A stretch of 64,000 bases of DNA from an uncultured Chloroflexia bacterium (GTDB lineage Bacteria > Chloroflexota > Anaerolineae > CG2-30-64-16), in assembly GCA_963808455.1 (NCBI GenBank), contig CAWEHT010000143.1, positions 89 through 64,088 on the forward strand. Direction: 5' to 3'. A model generated the notes under the pieces. The model saw nothing but the letters and a program-made list of their open reading frames with translations, was not told the DNA's origin and searched no databases. This document shows, piece by piece, positions 12,760 to 45,871 of the stretch (its first letter is position 1; every line of letters starts with the position of its first letter). The translations under genes were made by a program, and so were the position numbers.

Positions 12760-12801
12760 CAGGCTTTCGCAGCCTGGAAAGAGGCCCAAGGGGGGCCGAT
12801 A

Positions 12802-24426: not shown

Positions 24427-26580
<2,154 letters not shown>

Positions 26581-27185: not shown

Positions 27186-29596
27186 ATGATGGAGCCAACC
27201 GCCACGGGCGAAGTGCTCGTCCGATGTGAGGAACTAGCTGGTGAATTTGCCTATTGGGAGAAGACCAAGGACCTGATCGAGCAGCTGCTCGACATCATAA
27301 TGAACTACCGGCAGAGCGGCCACCCGGGCGGCTCTCGTTCTAAGGTGCATGGCCTGCTCGCCACCCTGCTTAGCGGCATCATGCGCTGGGACATCCGCCA
27401 CCCCGAAAAGCGCTTCGGCGATCGCTTCGTTTTGGCCGGCGGACACACCGTCCCCCTGGTCTACTGCACGCTGGCCGTCTTCAATGAGGCGTTGCGCATC
27501 AAGCAGGCCCAGACCGGCGATGCGCGCTACGCCGTGCCCAATCCGGAAAAGCGGGCACTGTATTGGGAGGACCTGCTGGGCTTCCGCCAACGCGGCGGCC
27601 TGTCGGGCCACGCTGAGATGGCCGGCAAGAGCCTGTTCCTCAAGTTCAACACGGGGCCCTCCGGCCACGGCACCCCGGCCGCCGCCGGCGAGTCCCTGGC
27701 CCTCAAGCGGGCCGGCGCAGCCGGCGTCAAGGTCTTCGTCTTCGACGGCGAGGGGGGCCTGACACCCAGCATCGTCCACGAAACGCTGAACTCCGCCTGG
27801 GGCCTGGCCCTGGACAACCTGTATTTCGTTCTGGACTGGAACGATTTCGGGATCGACGACCACCCGATCAGCAGTGTGGTCTATGGCTCACCCCAGGATT
27901 GGTTCGGCTCGCACGGCTGGCGGGTGTTCGGTGCCGAACAGGGCAGCCAGTGGGAAGCGGTCACCCAGGCGCTGCTTTCCATGACCCTGAGCGAAAACCC
28001 GGGGCGGGCTCCCAGCGTCACCTGGCTCAAGACGCGCAAGGGCCGCGGCTATCTCAAGTACGACAACGCCTCGCATGGCGTGCCGCATACGATGAATTGT
28101 GAGGCGTTCTGGGAGACCAAGCAGGCCTTCGCCGAACAGTACGGCGCCCGCTTCGCCAATTTCGGCGGGCCGGCGCCGTCCGATCCGGCGGCGCTGGGCG
28201 CCGAGTTCGCCGCCAACCTGCAGGCCGTGATGGCAGATCTTGCATGAAGACCAGGCGCTGGTGGATTTCCTGGCCGATCGGCTGGTGGCCTTAGGCGAGA
28301 GTGTGCCGGACGATCTGCCCACCTTCCGGCTGGGCGGGACGCGGCACGCCCTTCGCCGACCGCGCGGCTTTTCGATTATCGCGGCTACCCTGAGGACCTG
28401 TACGTGCAGCCCGGCACGGTGATCGCCAACCGGGCTGCCCTGGCCAGGTGGGGGGCCTGGATCAACGCCTTCGGCGCCCGCGAGTATGGCCGCCCACTGT
28501 TCATGGCCTGCTCGGCCGACCTGGCCGAGTCGACCAACATCAGCGGATTCGCCAAGCCTTACGGCGGCTTCCCCGGGTATGGCTGGTACGAACGCTACGG
28601 GAACGACCAGGGAGTTTTGTTGCCGCAGGAAATCACCGAACTGGCCAACGCCGGCATGCTGGCCGGCATGGCTACGGTGAACCTGGCGTCGGACCCGGAA
28701 CGGGAGTTCGACGGATTCTGGGGCGCCTGCTCGACCTATGGGTCCTTTTCGTACCTCAAGTACGGGCCACTGCGCTTGCTCAGCCAGCTGGCGCAGGATT
28801 GCCCCCTCAAGGTCGGCAAGATCATTTATGTCGCCGGCCACTCCGGCCCCGAGACCGCCGACGATAGCCGGACACATTTCGGCATCTTCGCGCCGGGCGT
28901 GATGCAGCTCTTCCCGGCCGGGCAGATCATCAACCTCCACCCGTGGGAATATAACGAGGTGCCCGTCCTGCTGGCAGCGGCGCTCGAGCAGGACGTGCCT
29001 ATCGTCGTGCTGCACCTGACCCGCCCACCAATCAGGGTGCCGGACCGCACCGGGGCGGGCTTGCCCTCGCACTTCGAAGCGGCGCGTGGGGCCTATGTCG
29101 TGCGCGACTACCGGCCCGACGCACCGCGCGGCGGCACGTTCATCGTGCAGGGCACCAGTGCGATGGACAACATCGTGAGGCTCTTGCCGAACTGGACGCA
29201 CGCGGCCCGAATGTCAAACTGGTGTGTGCGGCCAGCAGCGAGCTGTTTGCCCGCCAACCAGAAGCGTACCGGCGGAAGGTGCTTGCGCCCGGTGACCGCG
29301 CCAATTCGACGATCATCACGACGCAGGGCCGCTCGTTGATGCGGGAGTGGATCTTCAACCCGCTGGCCGAAGCGTACGCCTTGTCGGGCGATTGGGACAA
29401 CCGCTGGCGCACCGGCGGTTCGCTCGAGCAAGTGCTTGACGAAGCCCATCTCACGCCTCAGTGGTTGCTGGCCGGCATCGAGCGCTTCGTGCAGGAGCGC
29501 GAGACCCGCCTGGCCCGCCTGCGGGCCGATCTCGACGCCATCGAAACACCAGACTACAGGGAGGGAACATGGACCGTCATTGGAGCGCGTACCTGA
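27186..29596 (+). CDS. transketolase-like TPP-dependent enzyme (long form, about 800 aa); at least 3 frameshifts
   Basis: SGHPGGSRS and FDGEGG TPP motifs (27186-28247); Pyr and C-terminal domains in ORFs 28240, 28404 and 29222. Confidence 0.6.
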
Positions 29597-30486: not shown

Positions 30487-30518
30487 GGGCACAGGACGAA
30501 CCGCGTTGGTATAGGATT

Positions 30519-30552
30519 CGGGGTGGGCGGTGCGCCGCCGCCATGCCCACCC
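30519..30552 (+). terminator. GC-rich hairpin (9-bp stem ggggtgggc/gcccacccc) downstream of the sugar island
   Basis: stem-loop found by eye, followed by gtctgt; no strong U-tract. Confidence 0.35.
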
Positions 30553-31477
30553 CGTCTGTAGACAGAGCCAACAAGGGAGAAGTGCTGGACAACGCCGAAT
30601 TGAAGAACCGTCCAGCAGCAGCTGGTCGACGGCGGCAGGCGTGACAACTGCCCGTGCCCGGCACACTGCCGGGCGGCTCTCTACGGGCCAGGTGCTGGTG
30701 GCCGGGGCGCCTCAATTCGAGAGGCAATGCTCTGTCCAGCGCCAAGCTGCACACTCCCTGAGGCGCCGGGCAGTCAGCCTTGGCTAAAGCACAGGTGCCG
30801 ACGGAGGCTTACTGGCCGAACGTTGGTGTCAGCGTTGGCCAGGCGGCGCGCCAGGGCCTGTGCGGCTACGCCAGCCGAGCCTGGACACCTCAGGGGATGG
30901 ACATAACTTCTAATAGGGTAAACATCTCTCTTTCACAATCACATCACAACTAACAAGCTTCTGTTGGCAAGTATAATGCGGGCCGACGTGGCCCATTAAA
31001 TGGGCCGCCCAGTTGTCTAGCCAGACGGGGTCAGTTTGCGTGAGCATTGTGCCAGCCAGTACTTTCTCTGGTCATAGGCCCGCCAGTCACGGCACGCCGA
31101 ACGGTATCCGCTCTTAACCTTGGCGCCGGTCCGAGTGGCCAAGGGCGCTTTCAAGCGGCGGGGCACGGTGTTGCTGACCCTTGGCGACCAGTTGGGCGCA
31201 CGCTTCGGTGACGCCGATTTTTGTGACAGTTCAGCGTTACCCTTGACAAGGTGTGGCATGATTATGTTATGTATCTTGAGCCGGAGGTTGACCGTTTGTG
31301 GGCGGAGAATGCGGAACTGTGGCAGTTGCTGACCATGACACAGCAACAGTGGGCCGCGGCGCAACGGCGCATCGCGTACTTGCGGCCAGGTATTCTCGAA
31401 CCACTTGTTTCGCCCAAGCGTTGCGTTTACGTGCCACTGCCATGGCTGACCGACCAGAGGAGGTGACAAACGGTCAA

Positions 31478-31522
31478 ACTCTTTTGCACGTGCGTACTAG
31501 CGGCCAAGTAATCATTCACTGC
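31478..31522. repeat. about 45-bp element, copy 1 (ACTCTTTTGCACGTGCGTACTAGCGGCCAAGTAATCATTCACTGC)
   Basis: about 75% identical to the copy at 31683-31727; contains a GGCCAAGTAAT submotif. Confidence 0.5.
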
Positions 31523-31682
31523 AATCCAGGCAAAGGTCTACCGGCATATGACTGGGCCGGCATTTTGTGGGATCCCTTCGCCTAACGCTGTTCTCGACGA
31601 GGACTTGGTCCGCCATCCGAGGGACGACCTTGTTGTGTGAAGCGCATCGCAGTCGCAAAAGCCCGGTTTACTAGCGGCCAGA

Positions 31683-31727
31683 CTTTCTTGCACGTTCGCA
31701 CTTCCGGCCAGATATTACTGCACTACT
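31683..31727. repeat. about 45-bp element, copy 2 (ACTTTCTTGCACGTTCGCACTTCCGGCCAGATATTACTGCACTAC)
   Basis: direct repeat of copy 1; additional GGCCA(A)G(A)TATT submotifs at 31671-31684 and 31782-31792. Confidence 0.5.
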
Positions 31728-31915
31728 GTCTGACACGACGAGCCGGAACGCCCTTCCACAAGCGATTAGAGCCGTATTGGCGGCCAAGTATTCGTGTTAG
31801 GCGCGGCCCTGTTACGCGGCAAGTCACATGCAGGCCGGCTTCATTTAAGGATCGTACGATCGCCCGTCACGATCGTACATGGCCGCGTGCGCCTCGCGCC
31901 GGGCGAGGGGATCGA

Positions 31916-32482
31916 CTATAGGTAGCTGGCCCTTCCCTGACATGCCGGACACAGCCCGCTGCCTTCTTCGAAATAGGCCTCACCACATGATCTGCATAAG
32001 GCGATCGGGATCGGCGCGTGTTTAGCGAGAAAAGCCGGCGAAACCCTGACAGCGTCCACGGAAAGTATCGAGTTCCCGGCTTCCTGGATCTCGCTGACCA
32101 GCGCATCTCTGTCCTGCTCGCGCTTTGGCACGAGTCGCATGAACCATCTCTTGATTTCCGGGTACCGGTCAAGTTTTGACGCATCCACGCCGACGCGAAC
32201 CCCGTTACCGCTCTTCTTCTCATACAAGGTGAGGGCAAAACGACCCGTGTTGACTATTTTGAGCCAGCCGTTGCCGATGGTACAGGGGGTGAGGATCTGT
32301 ATGGCGTCAGGCAGGCACTGGGAGGTCTCACATATCGCATCGAAGTACTCGTAGGCGGTCATTCGCTTTACAGCAGCGTCAACCATGAACCCGCCGACCA
32401 GGACGCCCGGGGCCAGGTGGGCATGAAAGCTGGTGAGTTTGTCAATATACTGCTCAACCGTGTATTGGCAGATCGCATTCAT
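31916..32482 (-). CDS. FmdE/FwdE-family protein with C-terminal zinc ribbon
   Basis: HLAPGVLVGGFMVD FmdE motif; C-terminal CRSCGE...CPAC. Confidence 0.7.
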   Translation of the reverse strand: MNAICQYTVEQYIDKLTSFHAHLAPGVLVGGFMVDAAVKRMTAYEYFDAICETSQCLPDAIQILTPCTIGNGWLKIVNTGRFALTLYEKKSGNGVRVGVDASKLDRYPEIKRWFMRLVPKREQDRDALVSEIQEAGNSILSVDAVRVSPAFLAKHAPIPIALCRSCGEAYFEEGSGLCPACQGRASYL

Positions 32483-33276
32483 TCCACGATCCTATCGGGG
32501 TGGGTGTAGACGTTCAGGGTGTTGCCTCGGGCAAAACCCACCAGCGTAATCCCCAATTGTTCAGCCATGGCGATGGAAAGGCATGTCGGCGCTGCTAGAG
32601 AAACCACCAACGGCACACCGATCCGTGCGACCAGGCCCAACCTCTCTGAACCGATCCGTCCACTCACTATTACAGCCTTCTCGGACGTTTCAACGTCGTT
32701 GAGAAACGTATAGCCAAGTAATCGGTCAAGCGCATTGTGGCGGCCAACATCTTCATAGCTGACGACAAAGCCCTCTCTGTGGGCCAAAGCTGCTTCGTGA
32801 ACGCCGCCCGTAAGCCTGAAGCTGTGCGCCTCCTCATTGAATTGGGCAACAAAGCCTCGCAGTTCTCTCAGCGTAAAGCGTGCCCCGTGTGCGACCGGTT
32901 GCACTTGTTCATCATCGCTGAGAGAGCGGAGCGATAGTTCTTCTTTCCTGGAATACCTGGCGGGATTCCTCTTCAGAAAATCCTCATTCCGCTCTGCGCC
33001 ACTCGTGGTCGTCTCAACCCATACGGCCCCCTGCTCCGGCCGATAGGCTATGCTCTTCAGATCATCGCGGTGTTGCAGAATACCTTCACTGACCAGGAAC
33101 CCGAGGGCCAGCAGTTCAAGCGCATAGGGCGAACACAACAAGGTAGCCAGCTTCACCCCGTTCAGCATGATGGCTAGCGGCACCTCTTTGGCTATGGGCC
33201 GTCGGACGGTATGTTTTTCCCCATCCATATACTCGGTCAGTTCACGCTCCTCGTAGATCTCGTGTGGCTCCGCCAT
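32479..33276 (-). CDS. fdhD: formate-dehydrogenase-family accessory sulfurtransferase FdhD
   Basis: DVGRHNALDRLLG signature; about 265 aa. Confidence 0.8.
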   Translation of the reverse strand: MAEPHEIYEERELTEYMDGEKHTVRRPIAKEVPLAIMLNGVKLATLLCSPYALELLALGFLVSEGILQHRDDLKSIAYRPEQGAVWVETTTSGAERNEDFLKRNPARYSRKEELSLRSLSDDEQVQPVAHGARFTLRELRGFVAQFNEEAHSFRLTGGVHEAALAHREGFVVSYEDVGRHNALDRLLGYTFLNDVETSEKAVIVSGRIGSERLGLVARIGVPLVVSLAAPTCLSIAMAEQLGITLVGFARGNTLNVYTHPDRIVE

Positions 33277-33281
33277 GTCTC

Positions 33282-34149
33282 TCAGCAGGCCTCCTCACGA
33301 ATAAGGGCTATAAACGCCGCGGCCGCCATGATGTCAGCGGTCGTGCCGGGGTTGAGCAAATGGCGGTCGTCGCGCAGCGACCGGTCGAAGCTCGCCAGCG
33401 TCTGCTGGCCGGCTTCCGTGAGCGCGCCGCCCGCCTGCAGCACCAGGGCCGCCTCCCGCGAGACGCGCTCCGCCACGGCGCGCCCCAGCTTGCGCGCGAT
33501 CAGCGTGTCTGGGACGTTCGCCAGGACTACCAGGTAGGCCTGAACCATCGCGGGCGTGATGTCTCCGGCCAGCCGGCAAGCCTCTTCGAGCGCCGGAAGC
33601 GCCAGATCGAAGGTCACCGCAAAGTCAGTCGCGTATTCCCGGGCGATCGTGTCGCGATCCTGGGCCAGCGCCATGGCGTCGCGCAGCGTGATTGCCGGCT
33701 CGTCCCCTACGTCGGCGTCCGAAACCTTGCCGAGCCCGCCGGCCGAGGCAAGGCGGATGGCCGCGTAGGCCAGCCAGCGCGTCCTCCACCGTGAGCTCTG
33801 CCAGGACGCGCGCCAGATTTGCCCGCGTCTCGCCAGCCTTCATCATGGCCCTGGCAAGCGGTGCCATGAGCAGCACGGTGCCCAGGTTCGTGTTCGTGTG
33901 GACCAGCCGCCGGGTCGCCGAGACGGCATTCCAGATGATCTGCCCAACGCAATCTTGAGAAGCCTGCCTCATTGCCGGCCCGATAGCCACGGCGCTGAGA
34001 AGGAAATCCTCGAAGCGGGCATCGGTAAAACCGGTGGAGCGCCCTACGTTCCCGGGCTTCGGCGCGCTGACTTCCAGCAGGCATGCTGCCTGAGCCGCCA
34101 GCCCGATGCCATCAGGCGTGCGGTCGAAGGCCGGAAGATCGCACGTCAC
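33282..34149 (-). CDS. triphosphoribosyl-dephospho-CoA synthase (CitG/MdcB)-family protein, H4MPT-island type; frameshift near 33640
   Basis: SAPKPGNVGRS motif; GTG start overlaps the stop of the upstream gene (GTGA); two ORFs, 33625-34278 and 33282-33674. Confidence 0.5.
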
Positions 34150-35021
34150 GCCTGCATCCGATCCAACACATAGTCGGCGATCGCGCCGGCTATGTCGAAT
34201 TGAACGGTGCTCTGCAAACCGCGCCAGCCCGGTATGCAGTTGATTTCGAGCACGAACGGCTGGCCGTGTCGATCGCACACGATATCAACGCCCGCGTAAT
34301 CCATCCCGATCAGCCGAGCCGCACGCAGCGCCAGCGACTCCAATGCTGGGTCCAGCGTCAGGGCTGTGCTGTGGGCGCCTTGGGCCATGTTCGTCTTCCA
34401 GCCGACGCCACGGCGGGCCATCGCCGCCAGTAGCCGATCTCCCAGCACAAAAGCGCGGATATCCCAATCATCATGCGGCACATATTCCTGCACATAGTAG
34501 ACATAGCGTCCAAGCTCTAGGGCCCGGAAGATGCGATGCGCCAGGTCGCGATCGACGATGCGCATCATGCCCTTGCCCTCGGAGCCGAAGAGCGGCTTGA
34601 CCACGACGTCACCGCCCAACTCATCGAAGGCCAGCATGGCTTCGTCAAAGCACTCGGTCGCGATCGTGCGCGGCGTCGGCAGGCCGGCGTCTTCGAGGAG
34701 GCTGGACGTGTAGTACTTGTCCACCGTCTGCTCGATGGCCCGGGCGCTGTTGATGACGCGCACGCCCATGTTCTCCAGCCGATGCAAGACATCGACCCGG
34801 TAGATGATCTGCTCCAGCGAGGCGATGGGAATGCCGCGCACGATGACAGCGGCACAATCATCCAGGGGGATGCCAGACGCCCCGGCACGAGGCGTGCCCA
34901 TCACGCGGGTCAGGAGGTGCGTGCTGCTAAAGTGTGCCACCGTCACGCCGCGTTGCTCCAGAGCTTCCTGGAGACGGAGGACGTGCCAGCTGGCTTCAGA
35001 AGCCATGATGCCGACTTTCAA
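34146..35021 (-). CDS. RimK-family ATP-grasp ligase (MptN/CofF-like glutamate ligase)
   Basis: ATP-grasp motifs VVKPLFGSEGKGM and EINCIPGW. Confidence 0.65.
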   Translation of the reverse strand: MKVGIMASEASWHVLRLQEALEQRGVTVAHFSSTHLLTRVMGTPRAGASGIPLDDCAAVIVRGIPIASLEQIIYRVDVLHRLENMGVRVINSARAIEQTVDKYYTSSLLEDAGLPTPRTIATECFDEAMLAFDELGGDVVVKPLFGSEGKGMMRIVDRDLAHRIFRALELGRYVYYVQEYVPHDDWDIRAFVLGDRLLAAMARRGVGWKTNMAQGAHSTALTLDPALESLALRAARLIGMDYAGVDIVCDRHGQPFVLEINCIPGWRGLQSTVQFDIAGAIADYVLDRMQA

Positions 35022-35051
35022 CGTGTAGCCTTTCGCCTGTAGGATGCCACT

Positions 35052-36024
35052 TCACGCGCCGAGCAGTGAGGCGCGCAAGACCGAGGCGTTGAGATGCCCG
35101 GCTGAGAAGGTCTTACCGGTGTTCAGGTTGTTGATCGTGACGCGCGCCGGGCTGAACAGCATGGGATCGATCGAGTAGAAGTCGCCGTAGCGCTTGAAGA
35201 TCTTGTAAAACGGCTGGCCGTAATCGCGCGAGGCCGACGATGGGATGCGTTCGACCAGGTCGGCCAGCTCGGCGTCGTCAGCCCGCACCGCGTAGTAGAC
35301 CTGACCGCCGTAGAGGACGCAGTCGTTCGTGCGTCCGATAGCATGCAGGTCGTCCTTATCGATGGGGGCAACGGGTGCGGTGCCGAAGCCGCTCAACACC
35401 TTGCAGACGTCGAATCCCAGCTCGACCAGCTTGTGCAGCCCCGTCTCGACCACGCGCCGACACCTGCACGGAGCCCGCCAGCGAGGCTGTGGGCGCGATC
35501 AGCAGGGCGAGGTTTTCGGGGGAGACGCCGCACTTGCCCGCGATATACGCCGCAACCTCGTCGCCGGGCAGTTGGCGGCCTTCCAGCACGAGGACAGCGG
35601 CCCCGGCCTGATCGCGGTAGCCCAGCTTCTCGTAGAGCTTCTCGACCAGCGCCAGGGCGCGGGCAGGGCCGGAGCCCATGGCGAAGTACTTGTCCCTCTT
35701 GATTGCCCAGCCCGCGTATTGGGCGGCCATGCAGCCGATGGCCGGTTGGTCCACCGTCACCCCGACACCGGGCAGCCAGAATCCGGAGCCGGCCTCCTCA
35801 TCGAATTGCAGGGGAAGGAATGACACTTCGCCGAGCCCACCCATGCACACCTCGGCGAGGCATTTGCCCGCCTGGAGCCCGCCCAGGGCCGCAACACCGC
35901 AGTCCAGCACCTGCGCGCCGCCGGGCAGCCGGATGACCTGAATGCCGTAGGGCTCGGCGTGCGCCACCATCTTCTCGACGATAAGGGCCGCTTCCTGATT
36001 GACGCTGATCACCCTTCCTCCCAC
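35052..36024 (-). CDS. mch: methenyltetrahydromethanopterin cyclohydrolase, copy 1; frameshift near 35410
   Basis: ISVNQEAALIVEKM, GGLGEVSF, AAQYAGWAI, GRTNDCVLYGG, LPSSASRDYGQPF, IDPMLFSPARVTINNL; paralog of the gene at 44817-45764. Confidence 0.8.
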
Positions 36025-36823
36025 AACAAGATCTCGCCCTTGCCAAGCGCCACTAAGTCACCACAATAGCGGCGGAAAAGGCCGCCGCGGTAGGCGGCCG
36101 GGATCTCCACGCCTAGCGACGCGACGTGCCGGAGCAGCAGGTCAACATAAGAGGCTACAAACGTGCAGGAATATTTGAACGACGCCAACAGCGTAGTCGG
36201 CCCGAAGCCGACCAAGGTCCCGCGCTTCAAACCGGCGCCGGCGCGTTCGCCGAGCCGGCCCATCACCAGGATCGTGCCTGCGATCATGAAGACGCCGGTG
36301 TAGTCGCCGCTATTGCCCCCGATCACGATCAGCCCGCGCCGCATGCTCGAGCCCGCCTCGTTCCCCACGTTGCCGTCGAACGAGGATCACGCCGCGGTTC
36401 ATCCCCTTCGTGCTGCCGCGGTAGCCACCGCCCAGATCATTGCCGGCATTGCCACGAATGCGGATGGAACCGCCGTGCATCTCGGCGCCGGCCCAGTCCG
36501 CGACATTGCCGTTCACGACGATGGACCCGCCGCTCATCTCCGCGCCCAGGTGCATGCCGGCGTTGCCTTCCACGGTGATCCGGCCCTGGGTCATGCCGGC
36601 GCCGATCATCTTGACGCGCTCCAGATCTCCTTCGACCAGGATATCGGGTTGGCCGTCCTCGCCGATCTCGAAGAAGTCGCCCAGGCAGGCCAGCTGGTTG
36701 CCGCAGTTGGCGGGCAGCGCGCTGATCTCGAGCGGGCTCTTGCCGATGAACAGCTCTGGCCGGATCGTCTCGACCTCGATGGGGATCTGTGGCACCTCTC
36801 TGAGCTTCAAGGTTGTCATAGCT
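36009..36823 (-). CDS. fwdC: formylmethanofuran dehydrogenase subunit C; frameshift near 36370
   Basis: GXGXG beta-helix repeats (ITVEGNAGMHLGAEMSGGSIVVNGNV...); C-terminus GLIVIGGNSGDYTGVFMIAGTILVMG in the 36009-36368 ORF. Confidence 0.75.
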
Positions 36824-37703
36824 GGCCCCCCACGACCTTTTGCAGGTGGATCTGGAACTGGCCGAGCGTCCCACCGTAGTTGCCGGCCGTGATGCGGCGG
36901 ATGCCTGGGATGCAGGCTGCCAGGATGCCCACGCGCGTGGCCTCTTCCACGGCGGCCAAGTCCAGCCCATCGATGACGATCTCCAGGACGCTGTTGACGC
37001 CTTCGGGCAGGCCACTCGTAGTTATACCCCGCAACGTTGGACAGAAGGCATCGTTGGTCGAGGCGATCAGGAATTTGTAGCGCGAGCTCGTCTTGCTTCC
37101 GCTGCGCACGATGCCGCCGGGGAACGGCATGATCGCCCCTCGCACCTGCGTCATGGCCGAGATGGCGCATTCGGCAGCTTCCAGCGTGGCGTCGATCGTC
37201 TCGCCAAGGATCAGGAAATTGCCGCCGCCGACGGACTTCTGCATGCCGAACTTCTCCTCGACGAGGAACTCTCCCTCCATCACGGGAATGCGCCAGAAAC
37301 GGCGCTCGCCGAGGAGCTTGCTCATCTGATAACCATCGCCGAAGAAGCGCAGCTGGCCGCCGATGGGCATGGTGGTCGCGCTCTCGAGGCCATTGAAGCA
37401 CGACGTCGTGGGGCAGGTCATCACGCACTGGCCAACGCGATCCATCAGGCGCTTGGGCAGGTCGTCCTTGCCGGGCGTAAAGAGCAGCACGCTCACGCCG
37501 GGCCGGCCGTCGGGCGTGTCGGCCACGGGGCCCTCGATGCCGGCCTCGCACTTGCAACCGATCACGGATGTCGCAAAGCCGGCCATCGAAGTGGCAGCCG
37601 TCATGGCCCAGCGCTGGTTGCACGCCGTGATGATGACCCGCGTGCCCCACATCTTGAAGGCTTCGGCGAAGGTGTCTTCGATTTCTACGCCGTTAATGTC
37701 CAT
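36816..37703 (-). CDS. ftr: formylmethanofuran:tetrahydromethanopterin N-formyltransferase
   Basis: MDINGVEIEDTFAEAF N-terminus; collinear with Ftr throughout; 295 aa. Confidence 0.85.
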   Translation of the reverse strand: MDINGVEIEDTFAEAFKMWGTRVIITACNQRWAMTAATSMAGFATSVIGCKCEAGIEGPVADTPDGRPGVSVLLFTPGKDDLPKRLMDRVGQCVMTCPTTSCFNGLESATTMPIGGQLRFFGDGYQMSKLLGERRFWRIPVMEGEFLVEEKFGMQKSVGGGNFLILGETIDATLEAAECAISAMTQVRGAIMPFPGGIVRSGSKTSSRYKFLIASTNDAFCPTLRGITTSGLPEGVNSVLEIVIDGLDLAAVEEATRVGILAACIPGIRRITAGNYGGTLGQFQIHLQKVVGGQL

Positions 37704-39378
37704 GGGCAGCCTCCATTACCGGGTTCCCGGTCGCAATGTCGAGGAAGCAAGGCACCGAAGCACGCAACGGCAGGTAAGCGTCATAGTCTACCGGATAGTT
37801 CGCGAAATCGACGGTATAGTACTGCTCGAAATCGTCGCATATCGCTTCCTGGATATGCGGGTCGTATTCAGGCGCCACGTAGAGGAGAGTGCCAGGCTGG
37901 ACGCGCACGATGCGTCCGTTCTCGGCCACGATCTCGCCAGCCTTGATCGTGTAGCGCGGGCGGGCAAACATCTCCCCGACGTCGGCGCAATCGGCCGGCC
38001 GCCGATAGATGGCCACGTCGGCGTCGGCGCCGATGCCCAGGTGTCCTTTGTTGGGCAGGCCGAGCCGCCGCGCCGGCCCGGCGCGCGTGATGGTCACGAT
38101 CTCGGGCAGCGTATACTCGCGCGTGAGGTCTTTTAGGCCGGTGCGCGTCCTGGCGGCGCTATGGACCCCCTCCAGCTTGCTCATCCGGTAATCGTGATCC
38201 ATGAGGAGCCTGATGATGTCCGGATAGGCATGGAATGGGCCGGCGTTGGGATGGTCGGTGGTGAGGAAGACGCGCCACGGGTCCTTGATGAGCAAAGCCA
38301 ATTCAAGGCCGATCGCCCATTGCACGGCGTTCACGGCATTGCGTCTGACGAACCGGTAAGGCACCACGCCTGAGCCGCTTTCCATCTCGACGTCGCTGTT
38401 GGCCCACTTGTGGCCTGAAAGCTGGAACAGATGGTACTGCCATGGCCCGTCGGCGGTCATGGTCGTGACGGGCCCAAAGACGACCTGGCCCAGGTCAACG
38501 GTCACGTTGTCATGCTCGTTGACGTAGGCCGCCAGCTGGGGCGCACCGGAGCTGATGTCGGCCCAACCGGTGCCGCCATAGCCGTTGAACTGGGCGTGGG
38601 TGATGTGGATGGGCAGCCCTTCGACGGCCCGGATGCTTTCCAGGGTCGTCTCGATATTCCCCGGCGAGCCGAGGTTGTTGCAGTGGACATGGATCGGGTG
38701 CGGCACGCCCAGCTCTTGCTGCACGCGCGCCAGGTTGACAAGGATCTGGCGCGGCGTCACCGGGAAGGTATCGGCCAGGTCGTCCAGGCTGTGCACGTTG
38801 CGGCCCCACTTCCACGTGTCAACGCCGGCCGGGTTGACGATCTTGATCCCGAAGCCCCCGGTAACATTCAACAGCCAGGCCACATAGTCCTTGAGGCGGG
38901 CGAAATCGCCCAGGGCGATGTATTTCAGGACGAAGTAGTTGTTGCCCATCAGCACCAGGAAGCCCTTGTCCACGATGGGCGTGTCCTGCAGCTCTTCGTG
39001 GACATGGCGCGCCGTGAGCGGCGGGGCTGCTGCCTCGATGACCGTGGTGTAGCCTAACTGCGTGAAGTGATAGCCCGTAACGAATGTCGAGGGGATCGTA
39101 TGCCCCGTGCCCGACCGGGTCAGCTCCGTACGACGGATGGGCATGCCGCGGTGGTCTTCCGGGCACATCTTACGCGCGGCATTGACCTTGCTGCCGGCGA
39201 TATGCGCGTGAAACTCCACCCCCCCGGGCATCACGACCAGGTCACGCGCGTCGAGCACGGGCGCGTCCAGCGCGTCGGCCGCGGCGACGACCTTGCCGCC
39301 CGCGATGCAGATATCCCGCACCTCCCCGTTGATGCCGTTCTTCGGATCATAAACCGTGCCGTTAGTGATTCGCAGCAT
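37693..39378 (-). CDS. fwdA: formylmethanofuran dehydrogenase subunit A (amidohydrolase fold)
   Basis: 561 aa; HAHIAG metal-binding motif; FwdA/FhcA family. Confidence 0.8.
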   Translation of the reverse strand: MLRITNGTVYDPKNGINGEVRDICIAGGKVVAAADALDAPVLDARDLVVMPGGVEFHAHIAGSKVNAARKMCPEDHRGMPIRRTELTRSGTGHTIPSTFVTGYHFTQLGYTTVIEAAAPPLTARHVHEELQDTPIVDKGFLVLMGNNYFVLKYIALGDFARLKDYVAWLLNVTGGFGIKIVNPAGVDTWKWGRNVHSLDDLADTFPVTPRQILVNLARVQQELGVPHPIHVHCNNLGSPGNIETTLESIRAVEGLPIHITHAQFNGYGGTGWADISSGAPQLAAYVNEHDNVTVDLGQVVFGPVTTMTADGPWQYHLFQLSGHKWANSDVEMESGSGVVPYRFVRRNAVNAVQWAIGLELALLIKDPWRVFLTTDHPNAGPFHAYPDIIRLLMDHDYRMSKLEGVHSAARTRTGLKDLTREYTLPEIVTITRAGPARRLGLPNKGHLGIGADADVAIYRRPADCADVGEMFARPRYTIKAGEIVAENGRIVRVQPGTLLYVAPEYDPHIQEAICDDFEQYYTVDFANYPVDYDAYLPLRASVPCFLDIATGNPVMEAAHGH

Positions 39379-40684
39379 GTGAGTTCGCCTCCTTGCGGGC
39401 CGCCAGCAATTGCCGCACGCGCTGCGTGATCCCGCTCAGCACCTCTTCATCGCTGGGAAAAGGCGAAGGCAGGAATTTGTGCATGCGCACCGGCACGTTG
39501 TCCATGCGGTAGAACGTCCCTTCGACGTTGATGCCAGAAGTCCCCGTATGGATCACGACCCTGGCGGCCTTGGTCGTATCCGTGTCATGATTATCGAGGC
39601 AGATCGTCGGGATCTCGCTCAGGTACCGGGACGAAGCTCGTGGGAAGTTGCAGACGGGATCGGCAGCCACGATCAATGCAGCATCGACCTCGCGGCGGGC
39701 CAGGAGATCGACGGCCGTGTATTCACCAGGGTTGAAGCGGGGGTAGCCGCGACCGAAATTGACGGCGAAGGGATACCCGGTCTGCCAGGCGATCACTTGG
39801 TCGTGGCCTGTAACGTTGCCGTGGCCGCGCAGCGGCTGCAGCGCGAATTTGGTATGGGCGTTCAGATCGCGTACCAGCAACATGGCCGCCGCCGTGTTCA
39901 ACTGCCGGCCTCGGGTCTGAGTGAGGCCCAAGCCGACGAACAGGACACCGAACTTGCAAGACATCATGCGTTGGGCGAGGTCTTGGAGCTGGGCCAGGGT
40001 CAGGCCCGTAGCGGCGATCGCGCTTTCATCGACCGGGATGCCCTGCACCAGGCAGCGCAGCGCCCAGATGGCCTCGAAATCACGCGCGGGACGGATCTGC
40101 AAGAACAGATCCGCCAGGCGAGCAGTGGAGGTCGGACGGATGTCGATCACGACCGCGGTGCGCTCTTTACGGCCGGCGGGCCTGTACAGGCCTTTGGGCA
40201 TCACGGCATAGCGCGCGAAATGCCGCGGGTGCGCCTCGGCCGAGTTGGCTCCCCAGTAGATGCACAGGTCAGCCCGATTCTTGACTTCCCCCAGCGTGCA
40301 AGTGGAGTCGCCGGCATACTGGAATCCCATACCGCTGGGCCCATGGCAGACAGAAGCACAAGTGTCGAGGTTGGAGCCCAACAAGTCGGCCAGAGCCACA
40401 GCCTCGCGTTGGGCCTCGCAAACGGTGCTGCTGAGGCCGTAGATCAACGGGTTGCGGCTCGAGGCGAGGTAGCCCGCCGCCGCATCCAAGGCTTCGTCCA
40501 GCGTCGCCGGGCTCTCATCGATCGTGGCTACGTGGTTGCAGGATTGGGTCGAGTGGCCCATGAGCCAGGCGCGCCCCAGCGCGCAGGCTTGCTTGACGCC
40601 GGTGACGTGCCCATCCTCCACCGTAACCTTTATGTCATCACAAACGCAGCCGCAAAACCCACAAACAATGTGCTCGAATTGCAT
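39362..40684 (-). CDS. fwdB: formylmethanofuran dehydrogenase subunit B (Mo/W-bisPGD subunit)
   Basis: N-terminal Fe-S motif CGFCGCVC; putative Mo/W ligand motif SVCHGPSG (Cys-His, as in formate dehydrogenases); ATG at 40684 overlaps the fwdD stop. Confidence 0.8.
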   Translation of the reverse strand: MQFEHIVCGFCGCVCDDIKVTVEDGHVTGVKQACALGRAWLMGHSTQSCNHVATIDESPATLDEALDAAAGYLASSRNPLIYGLSSTVCEAQREAVALADLLGSNLDTCASVCHGPSGMGFQYAGDSTCTLGEVKNRADLCIYWGANSAEAHPRHFARYAVMPKGLYRPAGRKERTAVVIDIRPTSTARLADLFLQIRPARDFEAIWALRCLVQGIPVDESAIAATGLTLAQLQDLAQRMMSCKFGVLFVGLGLTQTRGRQLNTAAAMLLVRDLNAHTKFALQPLRGHGNVTGHDQVIAWQTGYPFAVNFGRGYPRFNPGEYTAVDLLARREVDAALIVAADPVCNFPRASSRYLSEIPTICLDNHDTDTTKAARVVIHTGTSGINVEGTFYRMDNVPVRMHKFLPSPFPSDEEVLSGITQRVRQLLAARKEANSHAANH

Positions 40685-41034
40685 CAGTCCCTCCCGCCGC
40701 CCAACGCCCGCGCGACCACATCCTGAGTCTTGAAATCGGGCATGCCGGAAGCATAGGTTTCCGTGCCCGTCAGATCGCTGGTAGGTGGTCCGTAGGCAAT
40801 GAAAGCCATCCCCGCAGGCAGGTTGCCGGGCTTGCAATGCACGCAAGTCTGCCCGTATGGGCTGGTGAGCTCGACTTCGTCGCCGTTCTGCACCCCCAAG
40901 GCTGTCATGTCGCCGGCGTTCATCTCCAGAGTTGAAACGGCCTCGCGGTATTCTGCATTGTGCTTGCCCATGCTGATCCCGACACCTTGCTTGAGGATCC
41001 GGCCGACGACCAGCAGCAGCTTGATTTCAGGCAT
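40684..41034 (-). CDS. fwdD: formylmethanofuran dehydrogenase subunit D (molybdopterin-dinucleotide-binding domain)
   Basis: 116 aa; DMSO-reductase-family C-terminal-domain-like beta-barrel. Confidence 0.7.
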   Translation of the reverse strand: MPEIKLLLVVGRILKQGVGISMGKHNAEYREAVSTLEMNAGDMTALGVQNGDEVELTSPYGQTCVHCKPGNLPAGMAFIAYGPPTSDLTGTETYASGMPDFKTQDVVARALGGGRD

Positions 41035-42182
41035 ACAGTTCTCCTTTTAGCTCCCCTGCCCGGCGCACGAGGTTCATATAGCAAGAGCTGGCGGTGGGCC
41101 CATCGGCCAGGATGGTACAGACCGGATCGCCCAGCGCGATCTCCTCGCCCGGAAATGGTATATCGCGGATGCCGCGTTTGAGCCAATCGCGGGTGTCCGG
41201 GGTGCGGCAGTCGCGTTCCGCGAATAAGATGGCCTTGCCGTAGAAAGCTCGCGCAACCGCGGCAGGCCCGGGCGACACCCGACCCGGCAAGTATTTTTCT
41301 CGCACCGCCCGCGCATGCCAGCCAAACAACGGCACCCCGAGCGCTTGCTCGACCAGCTCCATGGACGCCGAATAGCGCGGATTGACCTCGAGCGGGCAAA
41401 TGCGCCCATCGTTCAATATGAAGTCCACGCCGTTGAGCCCGGCCAGGTGAAATTCGCGGGTCAGGCCGGCGACCAGCTCCTGCCGCGCGCGCCGCCAGTT
41501 CGGGACGGGCACGCTCGTCTTCCAGCGCCAGAGGGTAGATGTTGCCGCAATAGGTGAAGCCCGTGGCGCCAAATTCGGGCCGGCCGATCAGTTGCTCGCT
41601 GAGCCCAAGGAGCAGGGCATCCTCGCCGTTGGCCAGGAAAGCAGCCGAACAGCTCCGTCCGGCCACACATTCCTGTAAGAACCAGCCCGCTCCTACGAGA
41701 CCTTTGCCATCCCAGAAAGCGATGCCGTGCCCGCCACCGCTGCGCACCGGCTTGCGCAGCCAGCGCACGCCGGAATCCGAGGGCGGCGAAGCCCCCCCAA
41801 GAACCGTCTGCGGCACAGGGAAGCTATGACTCTGCAAGAAACCGGAGAGGGCCGGCCAGTGTCTGACCCGAGCCAGCACATCGGGGCTGTTGCCCAGCAT
41901 TTCTGCCGGCCGCGCAGCCAGCGCGGCGACGATCCTCGGATGGTTTTCGAGGCTGGAGGCATAGGCCACGGCATCATATGCCAGGCTGCAGCTGGCCTCG
42001 AAGAGCCTGGCAGGCTCGAAAGGCCAGCCGAAATCCCTTTTCAGCGAGTAGTTCTCGCAGCAGAGCTTTTGATCGTAGTCACCATAATAATCCAGGGTGA
42101 CGAACTCGAAGCCCGCGGCTTTGGCCGACTGGGCCAAAGCCCGGGTGCTCATGCCGGCGATCAGAATGCGCATGGCCGCCAA
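41027..42182 (-). CDS. ATP-grasp-domain protein of H4MPT/methanofuran islands (MfnD-like?); frameshift near 41570
   Basis: N-terminal MRILIAGMSTRALAQSA; C-terminal GVDFILNDGRICPLEVNPRYSASMEL in the 41027-41572 ORF. Confidence 0.5.
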
Positions 42183-42368
42183 CCGCGCTTCTTAGGGCCC
42201 GCATGACACGGGCCCAGTTTCTCACTCCCGGTCACGCTGGCAAGTGCGCCGGGGTATAGCCGCTCGCCTCAGCCTGCAATCCGCAGACCGGAGGTGCAAA
42301 GCTTTCGCAATAAGATGCAATTCGATCTTTGCCTCCGCTCGATCCGCGGGCATCTGCGGACAGCGGGC

Positions 42369-43463
42369 TCAGCGCGACAGGAGGCGCTGTCGAAGGGCCT
42401 CCGCGCCCTGAACGTGCAGATGATCCAACACTGTTCCGCTGGCGCCCCGGATCTCCAGGATCTCCACCAGGCGTGCAAACCGGCCGCCGGCCAGACCATC
42501 GGCAATTAGCGCTGCTCCCTGGGCAGCTTCTTTGGCCACCCGGGCGATACTTTCGACGCGGCGCACCGGGCCAAAGCTGCTGAGCCGCCGCACCAGCTCT
42601 TCACGGATCACGGCCGTGCGACACAGCCGGCCCGAGACCAGGATCTCGCGCGGCCGTGGCACGACCGCCAACTCCGCGGCCACACTCTTGACCACACCCT
42701 CCAGCAGCGCCTCCCAGGCGATACGGGCCCGCTCGTCGTGCTGGGCAAGGCCGGCGAACTCCTCGGGCGCAAGGGTGGGCCGGCCGGCCACGTAGGCCGC
42801 GCCGCCACTGAACAAGACCTCTTTGTGGAACGCACCCAGCAAGTAGGCAAGCTCGGCGTCCATGCTTCCCAGCGACTGATAGCCCGGGCCGCCGCTGGTG
42901 CCACCCATCCCATCCACTACCCGACCGCCGTCCACTGCCATGACAGCAGTGTAGGCACCGCCAACCTCGACATACACGAAAGACGTCTCGGCAAAGCCGA
43001 TCCCAAAGCACCGCGCCTGGTCGAAGATGCCCAACGCCAGGCAGCACAGCTTGTCTGCGGTGCCCATGTCCACCTTGTTTGCCTTGCGATGTTCAGGGAC
43101 GGTGGGCAGATGGATCACCCCCGGCAGGAACACGATAGGCAGCCCGCTCTCTTTCATCAGCGGGATCAGCTTGCCCATCCCGCCCAGCCCAGAGGCATGA
43201 TGGCGCTCGCGCTCATCCACCAGCGTGAACAGGAAGCGTTCTTGGGCGCCGAAATCTGCCAGGGGGGTCAACGGGAGCCCATAACCCGAAGGCGCGGCAA
43301 TCAGATCGACCGGCGCTGCGGACTTCAACAGATCGACCAGGGCTCCCGGGTGCGCTGCGAACTCGGAAGAAGGCAGCGTCGTATCCAGGAAGACCTGGCC
43401 GTTGTCGATCCCGCATACGTCGAAGCTGACGGTGCCTGGATCGATGCCGACCGCGCGGGTCAC
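42369..43463 (-). CDS. ASKHA-fold conserved protein (DUF1464-like) found in H4MPT C1 islands
   Basis: N-terminal AVGIDPGTVSFDVCGIDNG; conserved context between an ATP-grasp gene and mtdB. Confidence 0.4.
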   Translation of the reverse strand: MTRAVGIDPGTVSFDVCGIDNGQVFLDTTLPSSEFAAHPGALVDLLKSAAPVDLIAAPSGYGLPLTPLADFGAQERFLFTLVDERERHHASGLGGMGKLIPLMKESGLPIVFLPGVIHLPTVPEHRKANKVDMGTADKLCCLALGIFDQARCFGIGFAETSFVYVEVGGAYTAVMAVDGGRVVDGMGGTSGGPGYQSLGSMDAELAYLLGAFHKEVLFSGGAAYVAGRPTLAPEEFAGLAQHDERARIAWEALLEGVVKSVAAELAVVPRPREILVSGRLCRTAVIREELVRRLSSFGPVRRVESIARVAKEAAQGAALIADGLAGGRFARLVEILEIRGASGTVLDHLHVQGAEALRQRLLSR

Positions 43464-43471
43464 GGCGTCAC

Positions 43472-44326
43472 CTACAACGCCTTACCGATGGCGTAGATTT
43501 CTTCGACGTCGAGCACCAGGTCGTTCTGCTCGAAGAGTCTGGCCACAGCCGCCCGGTGGATCTTCATCTTCAGCCCGCCGATGCCGAGGGCGCCAAAAGC
43601 CAACCTACCGTCGCGCTCTTTGCCGTCGTCGGTGGCCTTGATGCCTTCGATGCCCAGCGGCGGCACGGCGTTGATATCGGCGAGGACCCGCAGGGCCGGT
43701 CGAGCGGCCCACAGGGCTTTGGAAACGAGCTGGATGCCGGCCGCGCCCGCGGCCAGGGCCACGGCCGCCCCTTCCAGCGCCCTAGCTGCCGTGCCGTCAT
43801 CGGAGACCTCCGCCGGCAGGACTTCCAGGCCAAAACGGGCTTTGATTTCCTGGGCCGCCTGTTGCGCGCGGGCAAACACGCGCGACGTGAGCGTCACCCT
43901 GGCACCTTCCTTGGCCAGAAGAGTCGCCGCCCGGACGCCCACGGGGCCCGTGCCGGCGAAGATCGTGGCCACCTGGCCGGCCACCGGCATGGCGCGCGTG
44001 ATCTTCAACACGGCCGCGGCGGCAGTCGTATTGGAGCCGTTGGGGTCGGCCATGACCGAAACGCGCACCGGCCCGAAGAAGGCAGAAGCGGCGGCCTTCA
44101 GCATTTCTTCGCCCAGCGGCACCGAAGACCCACCGATGAAGATCGCGCTGTTCTTGAGCGCATCGCCACCGCGGGTGAACATGGCGCCATAGACCAGGCC
44201 TCGCACGTCTTTCACGGCCACATCGCCATACCCGATGACATGGTCCACGCCTGCGTCGTAGGCGGTAATGCAGTCAAAAGAACTCGGGTGTTTGTCGCTG
44301 TCGAGTTGTATCAGGAGTTTGTGCAT
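43472..44326 (-). CDS. mtdB: NAD(P)-dependent methylene-tetrahydromethanopterin dehydrogenase
   Basis: collinear with MtdA/MtdB (HKLLIQLDSD, AYDAGVDHVIGYG, FFGPVRVSVMADPNGSNTTAAA); 284 aa. Confidence 0.8.
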   Translation of the reverse strand: MHKLLIQLDSDKHPSSFDCITAYDAGVDHVIGYGDVAVKDVRGLVYGAMFTRGGDALKNSAIFIGGSSVPLGEEMLKAAASAFFGPVRVSVMADPNGSNTTAAAAVLKITRAMPVAGQVATIFAGTGPVGVRAATLLAKEGARVTLTSRVFARAQQAAQEIKARFGLEVLPAEVSDDGTAARALEGAAVALAAGAAGIQLVSKALWAARPALRVLADINAVPPLGIEGIKATDDGKERDGRLAFGALGIGGLKMKIHRAAVARLFEQNDLVLDVEEIYAIGKAL

Positions 44327-44346
44327 CCTTCCCCTCCTTCGCGGCC

Positions 44347-44685
44347 TTAAAGCAGGCCCCTGATTCGTGCTTTCTCCATCCAGGCATCCCAGGCCGCATT
44401 GGCCTCGCGCCGCTTGCCGGCACGCTGCAATTCCCGTACTTCCAGATAATCGCCCTGGAGGTCCCAGGGCAACAATGCGAAGGCATCCCGGATGAGTGCC
44501 CGCGCCGCCTCCCGCTCGAGCTCGGCATAATGCGCGTCCGCCACATCAGCCGCCTGGCTGAGCACATCTCCCCACGGCCCATTTTCCGCCACCGCATGAC
44601 CCTCCAGCCCGATATTGGCCGCAACATGCCAGGTCGCGGCCCCAGGAGAATCATAGCAAGGCACGGAGCCGGCCTCAAGAGACAC
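44347..44685 (-). CDS. hypothetical small protein (112 aa) upstream of mtdB
   Basis: ORF only. Confidence 0.2.
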   Translation of the reverse strand: MSLEAGSVPCYDSPGAATWHVAANIGLEGHAVAENGPWGDVLSQAADVADAHYAELEREAARALIRDAFALLPWDLQGDYLEVRELQRAGKRREANAAWDAWMEKARIRGLL

Positions 44686-44816
44686 GCATTACTGATCCAG
44701 CCTTTCGGGCCTCCGGCAAAAACTGCCGGCACTTCGGACCGCCGATCTGTGCTATACTGTGGCCGGTAGCGCACGGTGCGGGCACGCAGGCACCGACTTG
44801 CCACAGGAGGCATCGC

Positions 44817-45764: not shown

Positions 45765-45806
45765 CTGGCGATCGCCGGGCGCTTGTGATCTGCCCGTGGT
45801 AAAGGC

Positions 45807-45848
45807 GTGCGGGGCTCATCGGCCGCTACCGCGGGATGAGCCCCGCAC
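45807..45848. terminator. bidirectional hairpin (14-bp perfect stem gtgcggggctcatc/gatgagccccgcac) between convergent mch (copy 2) and the 519-aa gene
   Basis: seen in the sequence; 14-nt loop; no U-tract. Confidence 0.4.
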
Positions 45849-45871
45849 ACCTGTCAGGTCAAGCGATCAGG

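Follow-up and report, generated by a model that had tools for sequence, protein, structure and literature searches.

A tight gene string, fwdD-fwdB-fwdA-ftr-fwdC-mch-mptN-citG-like-fdhD-fmdE, occupies positions 31916-41034 on the minus strand of a 64-kb window of contig CAWEHT010000143.1 from an uncultured Chloroflexia bacterium (the window is the whole stretch of DNA analysed, and its first position is counted as 1). The cluster probably encodes a redox-active formylmethanofuran dehydrogenase (FMD) operationally fused to a formyltransferase, in the form of an FwdABCD-Ftr complex. The region is a bacterial 'archaeal-like' one-carbon (C1) module based on tetrahydromethanopterin (H4MPT) and methanofuran (MFR), and its gene identities, residue conservation, synteny and purifying selection were observed directly. 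The gene order was established by profile searches of the open reading frames (ORFs). Pfam or NCBIfam matches on this strand located every member of the gene set named in an earlier note on this DNA (FwdDBAC, Ftr, FdhD and FmdE), but the order is D-B-A-ftr-C rather than DBAC followed by ftr. Two mch copies and an mtdB, also listed there, are indeed present, although the second mch and the mtdB-like gene lie outside the interval. The same note was silent on two genes inside it, encoding a MptN/RimK-type ligase and a CitG-like protein, and on frame breaks in fwdC, mch, citG-like and the ATP-grasp gene just upstream, with one indel each. The fwdD stop and the fwdB ATG overlap by one base (TGATG), an arrangement of translational coupling; ftr sits between fwdA and fwdC with gene ends overlapping or abutting, and the fmdE start overlaps the fdhD stop.

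The evidence for a redox site resides mainly in FwdB, the catalytic subunit. Matches of FwdB and FwdA to solved archaeal subunits are far beyond chance (E values of 1e-113 to 1e-165). In a search of PDB sequences, FwdB matched 8RJA_B of Ca. Ethanoperedens best, at 1.3e-119, and 5T5I_B of M. wolfeii at 1.7e-113, whereas FhcB of Methylorubrum extorquens (6S6Y_B) ranked sixth and was matched at 7.5e-20 and in the C-terminal half only. The window FwdB shares 42% of its residues with 5T5I_B and 45% with a Methanocellaceae FwdB, but 28-31% with proteobacterial FhcB. The motifs CGFCGCVC and SVCHGPSG that had been claimed for this protein were both found in its translation. In the alignment to M. wolfeii FwdB, Cys113-His114 and Arg286 fall on three catalytic residues, Cys118-His119 and Arg288 respectively, which places the cysteine at the metal-ligand position of 5T5I_B, and in a match to Escherichia coli FdhH (query residues 100-208 against chain residues 127-229) Cys113 lands near the position of Sec140, a selenocysteine (Sec). 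Residue conservation was scored on the 120 closest database homologues (60-93% identity): Cys113, His114, Arg286 and two of the cysteines of the iron-sulphur (Fe-S) motif are found in every one of the 120, while the remaining pair of Fe-S cysteines is kept in 119. More than 100 FwdB homologues in this identity range come from metagenomes, and the nearest labelled ones belong to Chloroflexota. FwdD is encoded as a separate subunit, with matches to the FwdD chains in PDB at 2.6e-15 to 1.5e-7.

The comparison with FhcB, the corresponding subunit of the FhcABCD hydrolase of methylotrophs, used two proteobacterial proteins from fhcBADC clusters on plasmid records (L037 and L038) together with the residue statements in Hemmann 2019. 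According to the latter, Ser62 replaces Cys118 in FhcB, His119 and Arg288 are not conserved, the Fe-S domain and FwdD are missing, and formate is released. The FhcB proteins in L037 and L038 carry Ala-Leu at the Cys-His position and Gly or Ala at the Arg position, so that Cys, His and Arg are all lacking. These two proteins, from Paraburkholderia and Ca. Thiodictyon (L037 5971-7299; L038 5968-7266), have lost the Cys-His-Arg site but keep CxxCxxxC, unlike FhcB of M. extorquens, which is reported without the entire Fe-S domain. CxxCxxxC had been put forward as a discriminating feature, and its presence in the plasmid-borne FhcB weakens that argument: the Fe-S motif alone is not diagnostic because both proteins retain it, and the diagnostic features are the Cys-His-Arg triad and FwdD. 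Judged by these, the window protein is a true FwdB and not an FhcB. The central proposal of the earlier note, that a FwdB with a formate-dehydrogenase-type site and an FwdD cap is encoded here, unlike the Fhc scaffold, is thus supported by the residue alignment, by conservation in 120 of 120 homologues and by the selenocysteine variants described below.

Six bacterial FwdB loci from species-representative genomes (L001-L006), 49-52% identical to the window FwdB, belong to Peptococcaceae, Gracilibacter, Syntrophomonadaceae, Ca. Formimonas warabiya DCMF, Thermoleophilia and Actinomycetota. Each of them reads TGA in frame precisely where Cys118 would be encoded (SSY-TGA-HGPG), and beyond it the reading frame stays open for at least 300 codons. 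To judge from these sequences, the TGA at the catalytic position of FwdB is a selenocysteine codon. Its presence there argues for catalysis, since a protein serving only as a scaffold would have no use for so costly a residue. The locus of Ca. Formimonas warabiya (L005, FwdB at 9983-11290) contains genes for an MtdB-like protein, ATP-grasp, fwdD, fwdB, fwdA, ftr, fwdC, mch, rimK and citG in the same order as the window. The module of ATP-grasp, fwdD-B-A, ftr, fwdC, mch, rimK and citG also recurs across the clade of the window (L034, L039, L040 and the P0010 contig), and the nearest labelled homologues of the window proteins are from Chloroflexia (66-67% identity) and Anaerolineae. The metagenome contig L034 (JGI 3300035696, 130 kb) is collinear with window positions 32486-50669 at a nucleotide identity of 83-92%, mostly about 91%. 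Ratios of nonsynonymous to synonymous substitution (dN/dS) against L034 range from 0.05 to 0.31 over 15 genes, the four broken ones included, and from 0.06 to 0.19 for the five genes of the complex; single values are 0.12 for fwdD, 0.15 for FwdB, 0.19 for fwdC, 0.12 for mch copy 1 and 0.05 for the MtdB-like gene.

Solved structures exist for homologues 40-45% identical to the subunits. FwdA, the hydrolase, matches 5T5I_A at 6e-165 and FhcA at 1e-99, and in the alignment to 5T5I_A all metal-ligand motifs are kept: HxH (HAH), the carboxy-Lys motif IK(178)IVNP, IHxH (IHVH), TH and LTTD(385). Ftr is about equally near to archaeal Ftr (1FTR, 2e-94) and to FhcD (6S6Y_D, 2.5e-91). Once one inserted T is removed, FwdC aligns to FhcC (6S6Y_C) across residues 3-265, and within this alignment RRYCGDLVALGKGE is paired with RRYSGDLATLGKGE; against archaeal FwdC, the alignment of the corrected protein ends at residue ~217-222. 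The C-terminus of FwdC pairs with FhcC residues 205-262. In FhcC, residues 216-246 form two helices and a loop that replace the beta-hairpin of FwdC and serve as the main attachment site of FhcD (Hemmann 2019). A C-terminal insert of ~30 residues was present in all bacterial FwdC/FhcC sequences extracted (own clade, Sec-type Firmicutes and Actinomycetota, and proteobacterial FhcC), whereas archaeal FwdC loci have a short hairpin in its place. Given the B-A-ftr-C order and the Fhc-type C-terminus of FwdC, Ftr is therefore predicted to be docked on the complex. The contrast with Fhc drawn in the earlier note thus holds for the triad, the Fe-S domain and FwdD, but not for the operon order and the FwdC C-terminus, which are Fhc-like. 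On these sequence features the enzyme combines a dehydrogenase and a hydrolase of archaeal type with the architecture of Fhc, a mosaic that looks like an evolutionary intermediate in which the Fhc architecture is established and the archaeal dehydrogenase is still in place.

The FdhD-family protein of the string keeps the FdhD/NarQ fold and the C-terminal motif YEDVGRHNALD of the cofactor-binding region. In the alignment to 4PDE, however, the cysteine loop (Cys121/Cys124 in E. coli, GCGVCG) is deleted, and the same is true of the L034 orthologue; at this position a paralogue in a formate dehydrogenase (FDH) operon (L042 7583-8434) has PCCAC, the E. coli protein GCGVCG and that of D. psychrophila GCGG. 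The two loop cysteines of E. coli FdhD are said to carry the persulfide. The suggestion that the string encodes a sulfurtransferase for the molybdenum (Mo) bis-pyranopterin guanine dinucleotide cofactor therefore stands as far as the presence of an FdhD-family gene goes, but the sulfur-carrying cysteine loop is absent, and the fwd-linked FdhD may be a cofactor chaperone only. The fwd-linked FdhD proteins (window 32479-33276; L034 17644-18441) have a Cys in APTCLS where other FdhD have Ser or Thr. FmdE has both its FmdE domain and a treble-clef zinc finger, but its orthologue belongs to the operon of a Sec-containing FdhA: the window FmdE shares at least 90% identity with one that a relative encodes at a separate locus (L041 9597-10567; L042 7583-8997), where the order is NuoE-like, NuoF/GltD-like, FdhA with an in-frame TGA, rubrerythrin, FdhD and FmdE. 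Sliding identity changes from L034-like to L042-like at ~32,520, at the 3' end of fdhD, and homology stops at the FmdE stop codon; the adjacency of fdhD and fmdE resulted either from a lineage-specific recombination between fdhD paralogues or from an assembly chimera. The FdhA of the relative (L041 5737-8427; L042 4167-6857) spans 896 codons, includes the in-frame TGA at HCART-U-HAPTVAG and had previously been split into two gene calls; this lineage probably uses selenocysteine in FDH and cysteine in FwdB. Beyond the cluster on L034 come fdhD, an insertion sequence (IS) fragment, a gene for another FmdE (210 aa), and then genes for a MoeA-MobB fusion and a MobA-like protein. The 210-aa-type FmdE, used as a tblastn query, had no match in the 64-kb window, and no Rfam family matched the window, L034 or L041, which were scanned in case they contained a molybdenum cofactor riboswitch.

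Some of these features could be taken to mean that the complex works as a functional Fhc, releasing formate, with FwdB/FwdD as a mere scaffold or a loosely coupled formate dehydrogenase and with the separate Sec-FdhA as the oxidising enzyme. The B-A-ftr-C order and the FwdC C-terminus are Fhc-like, the relative possesses a NuoEF-linked Sec-FdhA with its own FdhD and FmdE, and the fwd-linked FdhD has no cysteine loop. This is nevertheless a very improbable reading. Everything reported as lost in FhcB (Cys118, His119, Arg288, the Fe-S domain and FwdD; Hemmann 2019) is present here, with the catalytic residues kept in 120 of 120 homologues, while in genuine FhcB proteins these sites read Ala-Leu and Gly/Ala; in Firmicutes and Actinomycetota the site is taken by Sec, and FwdB and FwdD evolve at dN/dS of 0.15 and 0.12.

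In the favoured scheme of a redox-active FwdABCD-Ftr complex, Ftr would move the formyl group from formyl-H4MPT to methanofuran, and the amidohydrolase FwdA would split formyl-MFR to formate. At the FwdB/FwdD site, which would receive this formate, a Mo- or tungsten (W)-bis-pyranopterin guanine dinucleotide, with Cys113 as ligand and His114 and Arg286 nearby, would oxidise it to CO2. The two electrons would pass by way of the one [4Fe-4S] cluster of FwdB, at its N-terminus, to a soluble acceptor that is most likely a ferredoxin; no FwdF/G-type wire is encoded. In concert with Mch and an MtdB-like dehydrogenase of the NAD(P) type, the complex would provide an oxidative route from methylene-H4MPT to CO2 with no free formate. 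We infer complex formation, the reaction direction, the electron acceptor and the metal used from these features.

The oxidative direction is favoured because of the MtdB-like and Mch context, the lack of mer, mtr and carbon monoxide dehydrogenase (CODH) genes nearby, and the presence of fae in a relative. The reverse course, from CO2 through formyl-MFR to formyl-H4MPT as in methanogens, would serve H4MPT-dependent C1 assimilation or a route resembling the Wood-Ljungdahl pathway. FMDs are reversible, work on the Ca. Ethanoperedens enzyme having concluded that their direction is set by the electron partner and not by the active site, and such clusters have been discussed in bacteria with the Wood-Ljungdahl pathway (Merino 2020, PMC7325909). 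The reductive course is nonetheless quite unlikely here: the accompanying dehydrogenase is MtdB-like (Mpt_N plus an NAD(P) fold), mer, mtr, F420-dependent mtd and CODH/acetyl-CoA synthase genes are absent from the window and from its 21-kb relatives, and the formaldehyde-activating fae follows the module in L040. Furthermore, no low-potential donor module (FwdF/G or Hdr) is encoded nearby, and the couple lies at about -530 mV (2024 FMD review).

As sequenced, four genes carry frame-breaking indels (ATP-grasp, fwdC, mch copy 1 and citG-like). All are on the window side of the comparison, uncompensated and in short repeats (GG, TT or (GC)n); the L034 genes are all intact, its ATP-grasp orthologue being an unbroken protein of 380 aa. 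The end of the contig is a head-to-head inverted duplication whose arms, 51094-57548 and 57555-64000, are 98.2% identical and differ by 67 mismatches and 41 gap openings. This foldback (arm of ~6.5 kb, junction at ~57548-57555) extends to the window end; genes for pre-ATP-grasp and Hydantoinase_A proteins are split over two frames in both arms, an AA_kinase gene is duplicated, and a His_biosynth-like gene is cut off at aa 124 at the junction. It looks like the signature of a chimera in a noisy long-read assembly, and another long-read-style contig of the clade, L039, contains similarly broken genes. The four frameshifts are probably sequencing errors of a long-read assembly. They are read in this way because L034 is intact at all four sites, dN/dS is low, the indels fall in short repeats and the contig carries the foldback. 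A programmed frameshift in fwdC was considered and rejected, as L034 has a plain open frame at that site.

Alternatively, the frameshifts may be real and the locus a decaying remnant whose complex is no longer made. Such a history would fit the finding that four indels break reading frames within 9 kb, none of them compensated and all on the side of the window when it is compared with L034, and the synteny breaks and IS-like remnants beside fdhD/fmdE suggest a locus in flux. However, dN/dS of the four affected genes (0.12-0.30) is similar to that of their intact neighbours; fwdD, fwdB, fwdA and ftr are intact; and the repeat contexts of the indels, the 41 gap openings in the 6.5-kb foldback and the broken genes of L039 point to noisy long-read assembly. 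Decay is thus unlikely, and a pseudogene as the main explanation was rejected on dN/dS, the intact L034, the indel contexts and the foldback.

Several points weigh against a redox-active FwdABCD-Ftr complex. No FwdF/FwdG/FwdI-type or ferredoxin genes were found in the cluster, the window, L034, L039, L040 or the P0010 contig, and all structurally characterised FMDs have an electron-transfer module (FwdG plus a FwdF polyferredoxin, or FwdI) that is thought to set direction (Ca. Ethanoperedens work; 2024 FMD review); this module could be encoded elsewhere in the genome. The FMDs characterised are the archaeal enzymes and Fhc only, and no bacterial FMD has been assayed (2024 FMD review). With the adjacent FdhD lacking its persulfide loop, maturation of a sulfido-ligated cofactor is not accounted for by the locus, and the fdhD-fmdE adjacency is weak evidence for a Fwd-specific FmdE. 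The genes for cofactor synthesis, tungsten transport and formaldehyde activation that the earlier note had proposed to look for (moeA/mobA, W transport, fae) are missing from the 64-kb window, although a moeA-mobB fusion and a mobA-like gene flank the cluster on L034: tblastn with the MoeA-MobB and MobA proteins of the relative and a search with the Fae of L040 gave no match in the window, the ABC transporter at 5730-9170 is of the sugar type (SBP_bac_1) and not Mod/Tup, and no Mo/W transporter was found. In the more distant relative L040, fae follows citG. Finally, fwdC is frameshifted as sequenced, and the complex is not encoded intact in the record.

A joint and more tentative proposal combines these elements: the five-subunit FwdABCD-Ftr might be a living Fwd-to-Fhc intermediate that oxidises formyl-H4MPT to CO2 with no release of formate. 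A tethered polyglutamylated methanofuran would swing between Ftr and FwdA as in Fhc; the single Fe-S cluster would pass electrons directly to a soluble ferredoxin, making this the smallest redox-active FMD known; and the pterin would be inserted by a dedicated, loop-less FdhD paralogue. Two glutamate-ligase-type genes (ATP-grasp_3 and RimK-type) flank the fwd operon.

Table 1. Genes, motifs and frame-breaking indels of the H4MPT/methanofuran region, in window positions
Feature	Position	Strand	Size, matches and remarks
fwdD	40684-41034	-	116 aa; PF01568 4.8e-10; NCBIfam FwdD 1.6e-19; cap ('fourth domain') of pterin site
fwdB	39362-40684	-	440 aa; TIGR03129 512 bits (cut-off 328); catalytic Mo/W-bis-pyranopterin guanine dinucleotide subunit
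FwdB N-terminal [4Fe-4S] motif VCGFCGCVCDD...KQACA (Cys8/11/15/34)	40580-40666	-	aligns with Cys9/12/16/35 of 5T5I_B
FwdB motif SVCHGPS (Cys113-His114)	40334-40354	-	from translation; aligns with Cys118-His119 of 5T5I_B
FwdB motif PLRGH (Arg286)	39821-39835	-	aligns with Arg288 of M. wolfeii FwdB
fwdA	37693-39378	-	561 aa; TIGR03121 745 bits; binuclear-metal amidohydrolase (formyl-MFR <-> formate + MFR)
ftr/fhcD, formylmethanofuran:H4MPT formyltransferase	36816-37703	-	295 aa; PF01913 and PF02741; TIGR03119 423 bits
fwdC/fhcC-like beta-helix subunit	36009-36819	-	frame broken at ~36380; corrected product full length, 269 aa
mch copy 1, methenyl-H4MPT cyclohydrolase	35052-36024	-	PF02289 across two ORFs; frame broken at ~35457
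RimK/MptN-type alpha-L-glutamate ligase	34146-35021	-	291 aa; PF08443; NF040720 MptN 247 bits, under cut-off 350
CitG-like (triphosphoribosyl-dephospho-CoA synthase family)	33282-34149	-	PF01874 across two ORFs; frame broken at ~33776
FdhD-family protein	32479-33276	-	265 aa; TIGR00129 197 bits (cut-off 141)
FmdE-family protein with C-terminal zinc finger	31916-32482	-	188 aa; PF02663 3.4e-37; PF23475 2.9e-6
ATP-grasp_3 ligase upstream of fwdD (MfnD/orf1-like by position)	41027-42173	-	PF02655 across two ORFs; frame broken at ~41483
DUF1464 protein	42369-43463	-	PF07318 1e-96; kept in L034, L039 and P0010 contig
MtdB-like methylene-H4MPT dehydrogenase	43472-44326	-	284 aa; PF09176 Mpt_N 2e-31
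mch copy 2, intact, divergent orientation	44817-45764	+	315 aa; PF02289 8e-104
DUF2193 protein	45872-47431	-	519 aa; PF09959 1e-213
beta-RFAP synthase	48036-49022	-	H4MPT-biosynthesis-type gene
DUF447	49006-49569	-	within H4MPT-biosynthesis-type block 48036-51751
ORF with no family assignment	49566-50621	-	within H4MPT-biosynthesis-type block 48036-51751
pterin-binding DUF6513/DUF4346-like gene	50606-51751	-	within H4MPT-biosynthesis-type block 48036-51751
Indel in ATP-grasp gene	~41483		+1 nt against L034
Indel in fwdC	~36380		+1 nt against L034
Indel in mch copy 1	~35457		-2 nt against L034, in GC repeat
Indel in citG-like	~33776		+1 nt against L034

The DUF2193 protein ('conserved in archaea', dN/dS 0.08) and a small glutaredoxin-like ORF are constant neighbours of the module in the clade. 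Next to fmdE, synteny breaks at 30487-31915, a stretch of 1.4 kb with lower GC and no convincing gene, which contains a coiled-coil ORF fragment like the N-terminus of an IS transposase (31251-31466) and two copies of a repeat coding for ...LHVRTSGQ... peptides (31298-31585 and 31637-31921).

The context genes of the window are bacterial (IS21, a GntR/FCD regulator, a sugar ABC transporter and uronate metabolism). The IS21-type element (147-2423, minus strand) consists of an IstB-like ATPase (147-896) and a transposase with a Mu-transposase C-terminal domain (900-2423). Downstream of the sugar-type transporter, five URO-D (uroporphyrinogen decarboxylase/MtaA-like) paralogues lie in a run of seven genes (9501-17334, plus strand) that also contains, between them, genes for a xylose-isomerase-like TIM-barrel protein and an amidohydrolase. 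A 683-aa fusion (24427-26478, plus strand) of a D-mannonate oxidoreductase-like SDR (short-chain dehydrogenase/reductase) with a nickel-pincer-type putative hexonate epimerase domain adjoins a tagaturonate epimerase gene (22719-24332). The N-terminal transketolase subunit is encoded at 27186-28247, and an ORF with high GC at third codon positions occupies the expected site of the C-terminal subunit (28404-29339, plus strand), where no ORF tried gave a Pfam or NCBIfam match; this may be another frameshifted or mis-assembled gene.

The FMDs studied biochemically or structurally are all archaeal, and the sole studied bacterial relative, Fhc, has lost the redox site (Hemmann 2019; 2024 review). 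The window adds a well-resolved case from a large uncultured bacterial clade, with a complete dehydrogenase site under purifying selection in an Fhc-style operon, and documents an intermediate on the path from Fwd to Fhc that Hemmann et al. proposed. Should the enzyme prove active, oxidation of formaldehyde or other C1 units would give low-potential electrons straight from formyl-MFR instead of giving free formate, the modelling of C1 fluxes in peat and soil bacteria would change, and a minimal FMD free of a polyferredoxin would be at hand for CO2-conversion studies. The value of the case is confirmatory and comparative rather than one of discovery, the idea being already in the literature. 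The cluster type is known from genomes (Merino 2020; Chistoserdova 2016; Wells 2023), and its activity is so far a prediction; what is added here is the residue test over 120 homologues, the Sec variants, the Fhc-type FwdC C-terminus, the loop-less FdhD and the assembly caveats.

Among known systems, the archaeal FwdABCD(FG) enzymes (5T5I; 8RJA) share with the window the Cys-His, the Arg and the four Fe-S cysteines of FwdB, the separate FwdD cap, the metal ligands of FwdA and the beta-helix core of FwdC. They differ in that the window has no FwdF/FwdG/FwdI genes and carries ftr inside the operon, in that archaeal FwdC has a beta-hairpin where the window FwdC has an Fhc-type C-terminal helix-loop-helix, and in pathway context, which is F420-dependent in archaea and includes an NAD(P)-type MtdB in the window. 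FhcABCD of M. extorquens (6S6Y) resembles the cluster in the order B-A-D(ftr)-C, the docking-type FhcC C-terminus and a neighbourhood of H4MPT/MFR cofactor-biosynthesis genes. However, FwdB of the window has the Cys, His, Arg and Fe-S domain, and the window has FwdD.

Homologues of fwdD have been kept in Firmicutes, Synergistetes and NC10 and lost in Proteobacteria and Planctomycetes (Chistoserdova 2016), and 149 bacterial FwdB representatives have been counted (Wells 2023). In single-cell genomes of Actinobacteria, fwdDBA-ftr-fwdC was described as lacking fwdEFG, as Fhc-like in organisation and as possibly active (Merino 2020, PMC7325909). These Hakuba Actinobacteria (Ca. Hakubella) share with the window the fwdDBA-ftr-fwdC order, the Fe-S domain, Cys118 and the lack of fwdF/G, and their FwdA is 56% identical to that of the window. 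Nevertheless, they belong to another lineage and are reported without fwdE and methanopterin-synthesis genes, while the window has H4MPT genes, FdhD and FmdE. The bacterial clusters with Sec-type FwdB, 49-52% identical in all six cases, contain the same module in Ca. Formimonas warabiya, and are distinguished from the window by a TGA-encoded residue (SSY-U-HGPG) in place of the cysteine (SV-C-HGPS) of its FwdB.

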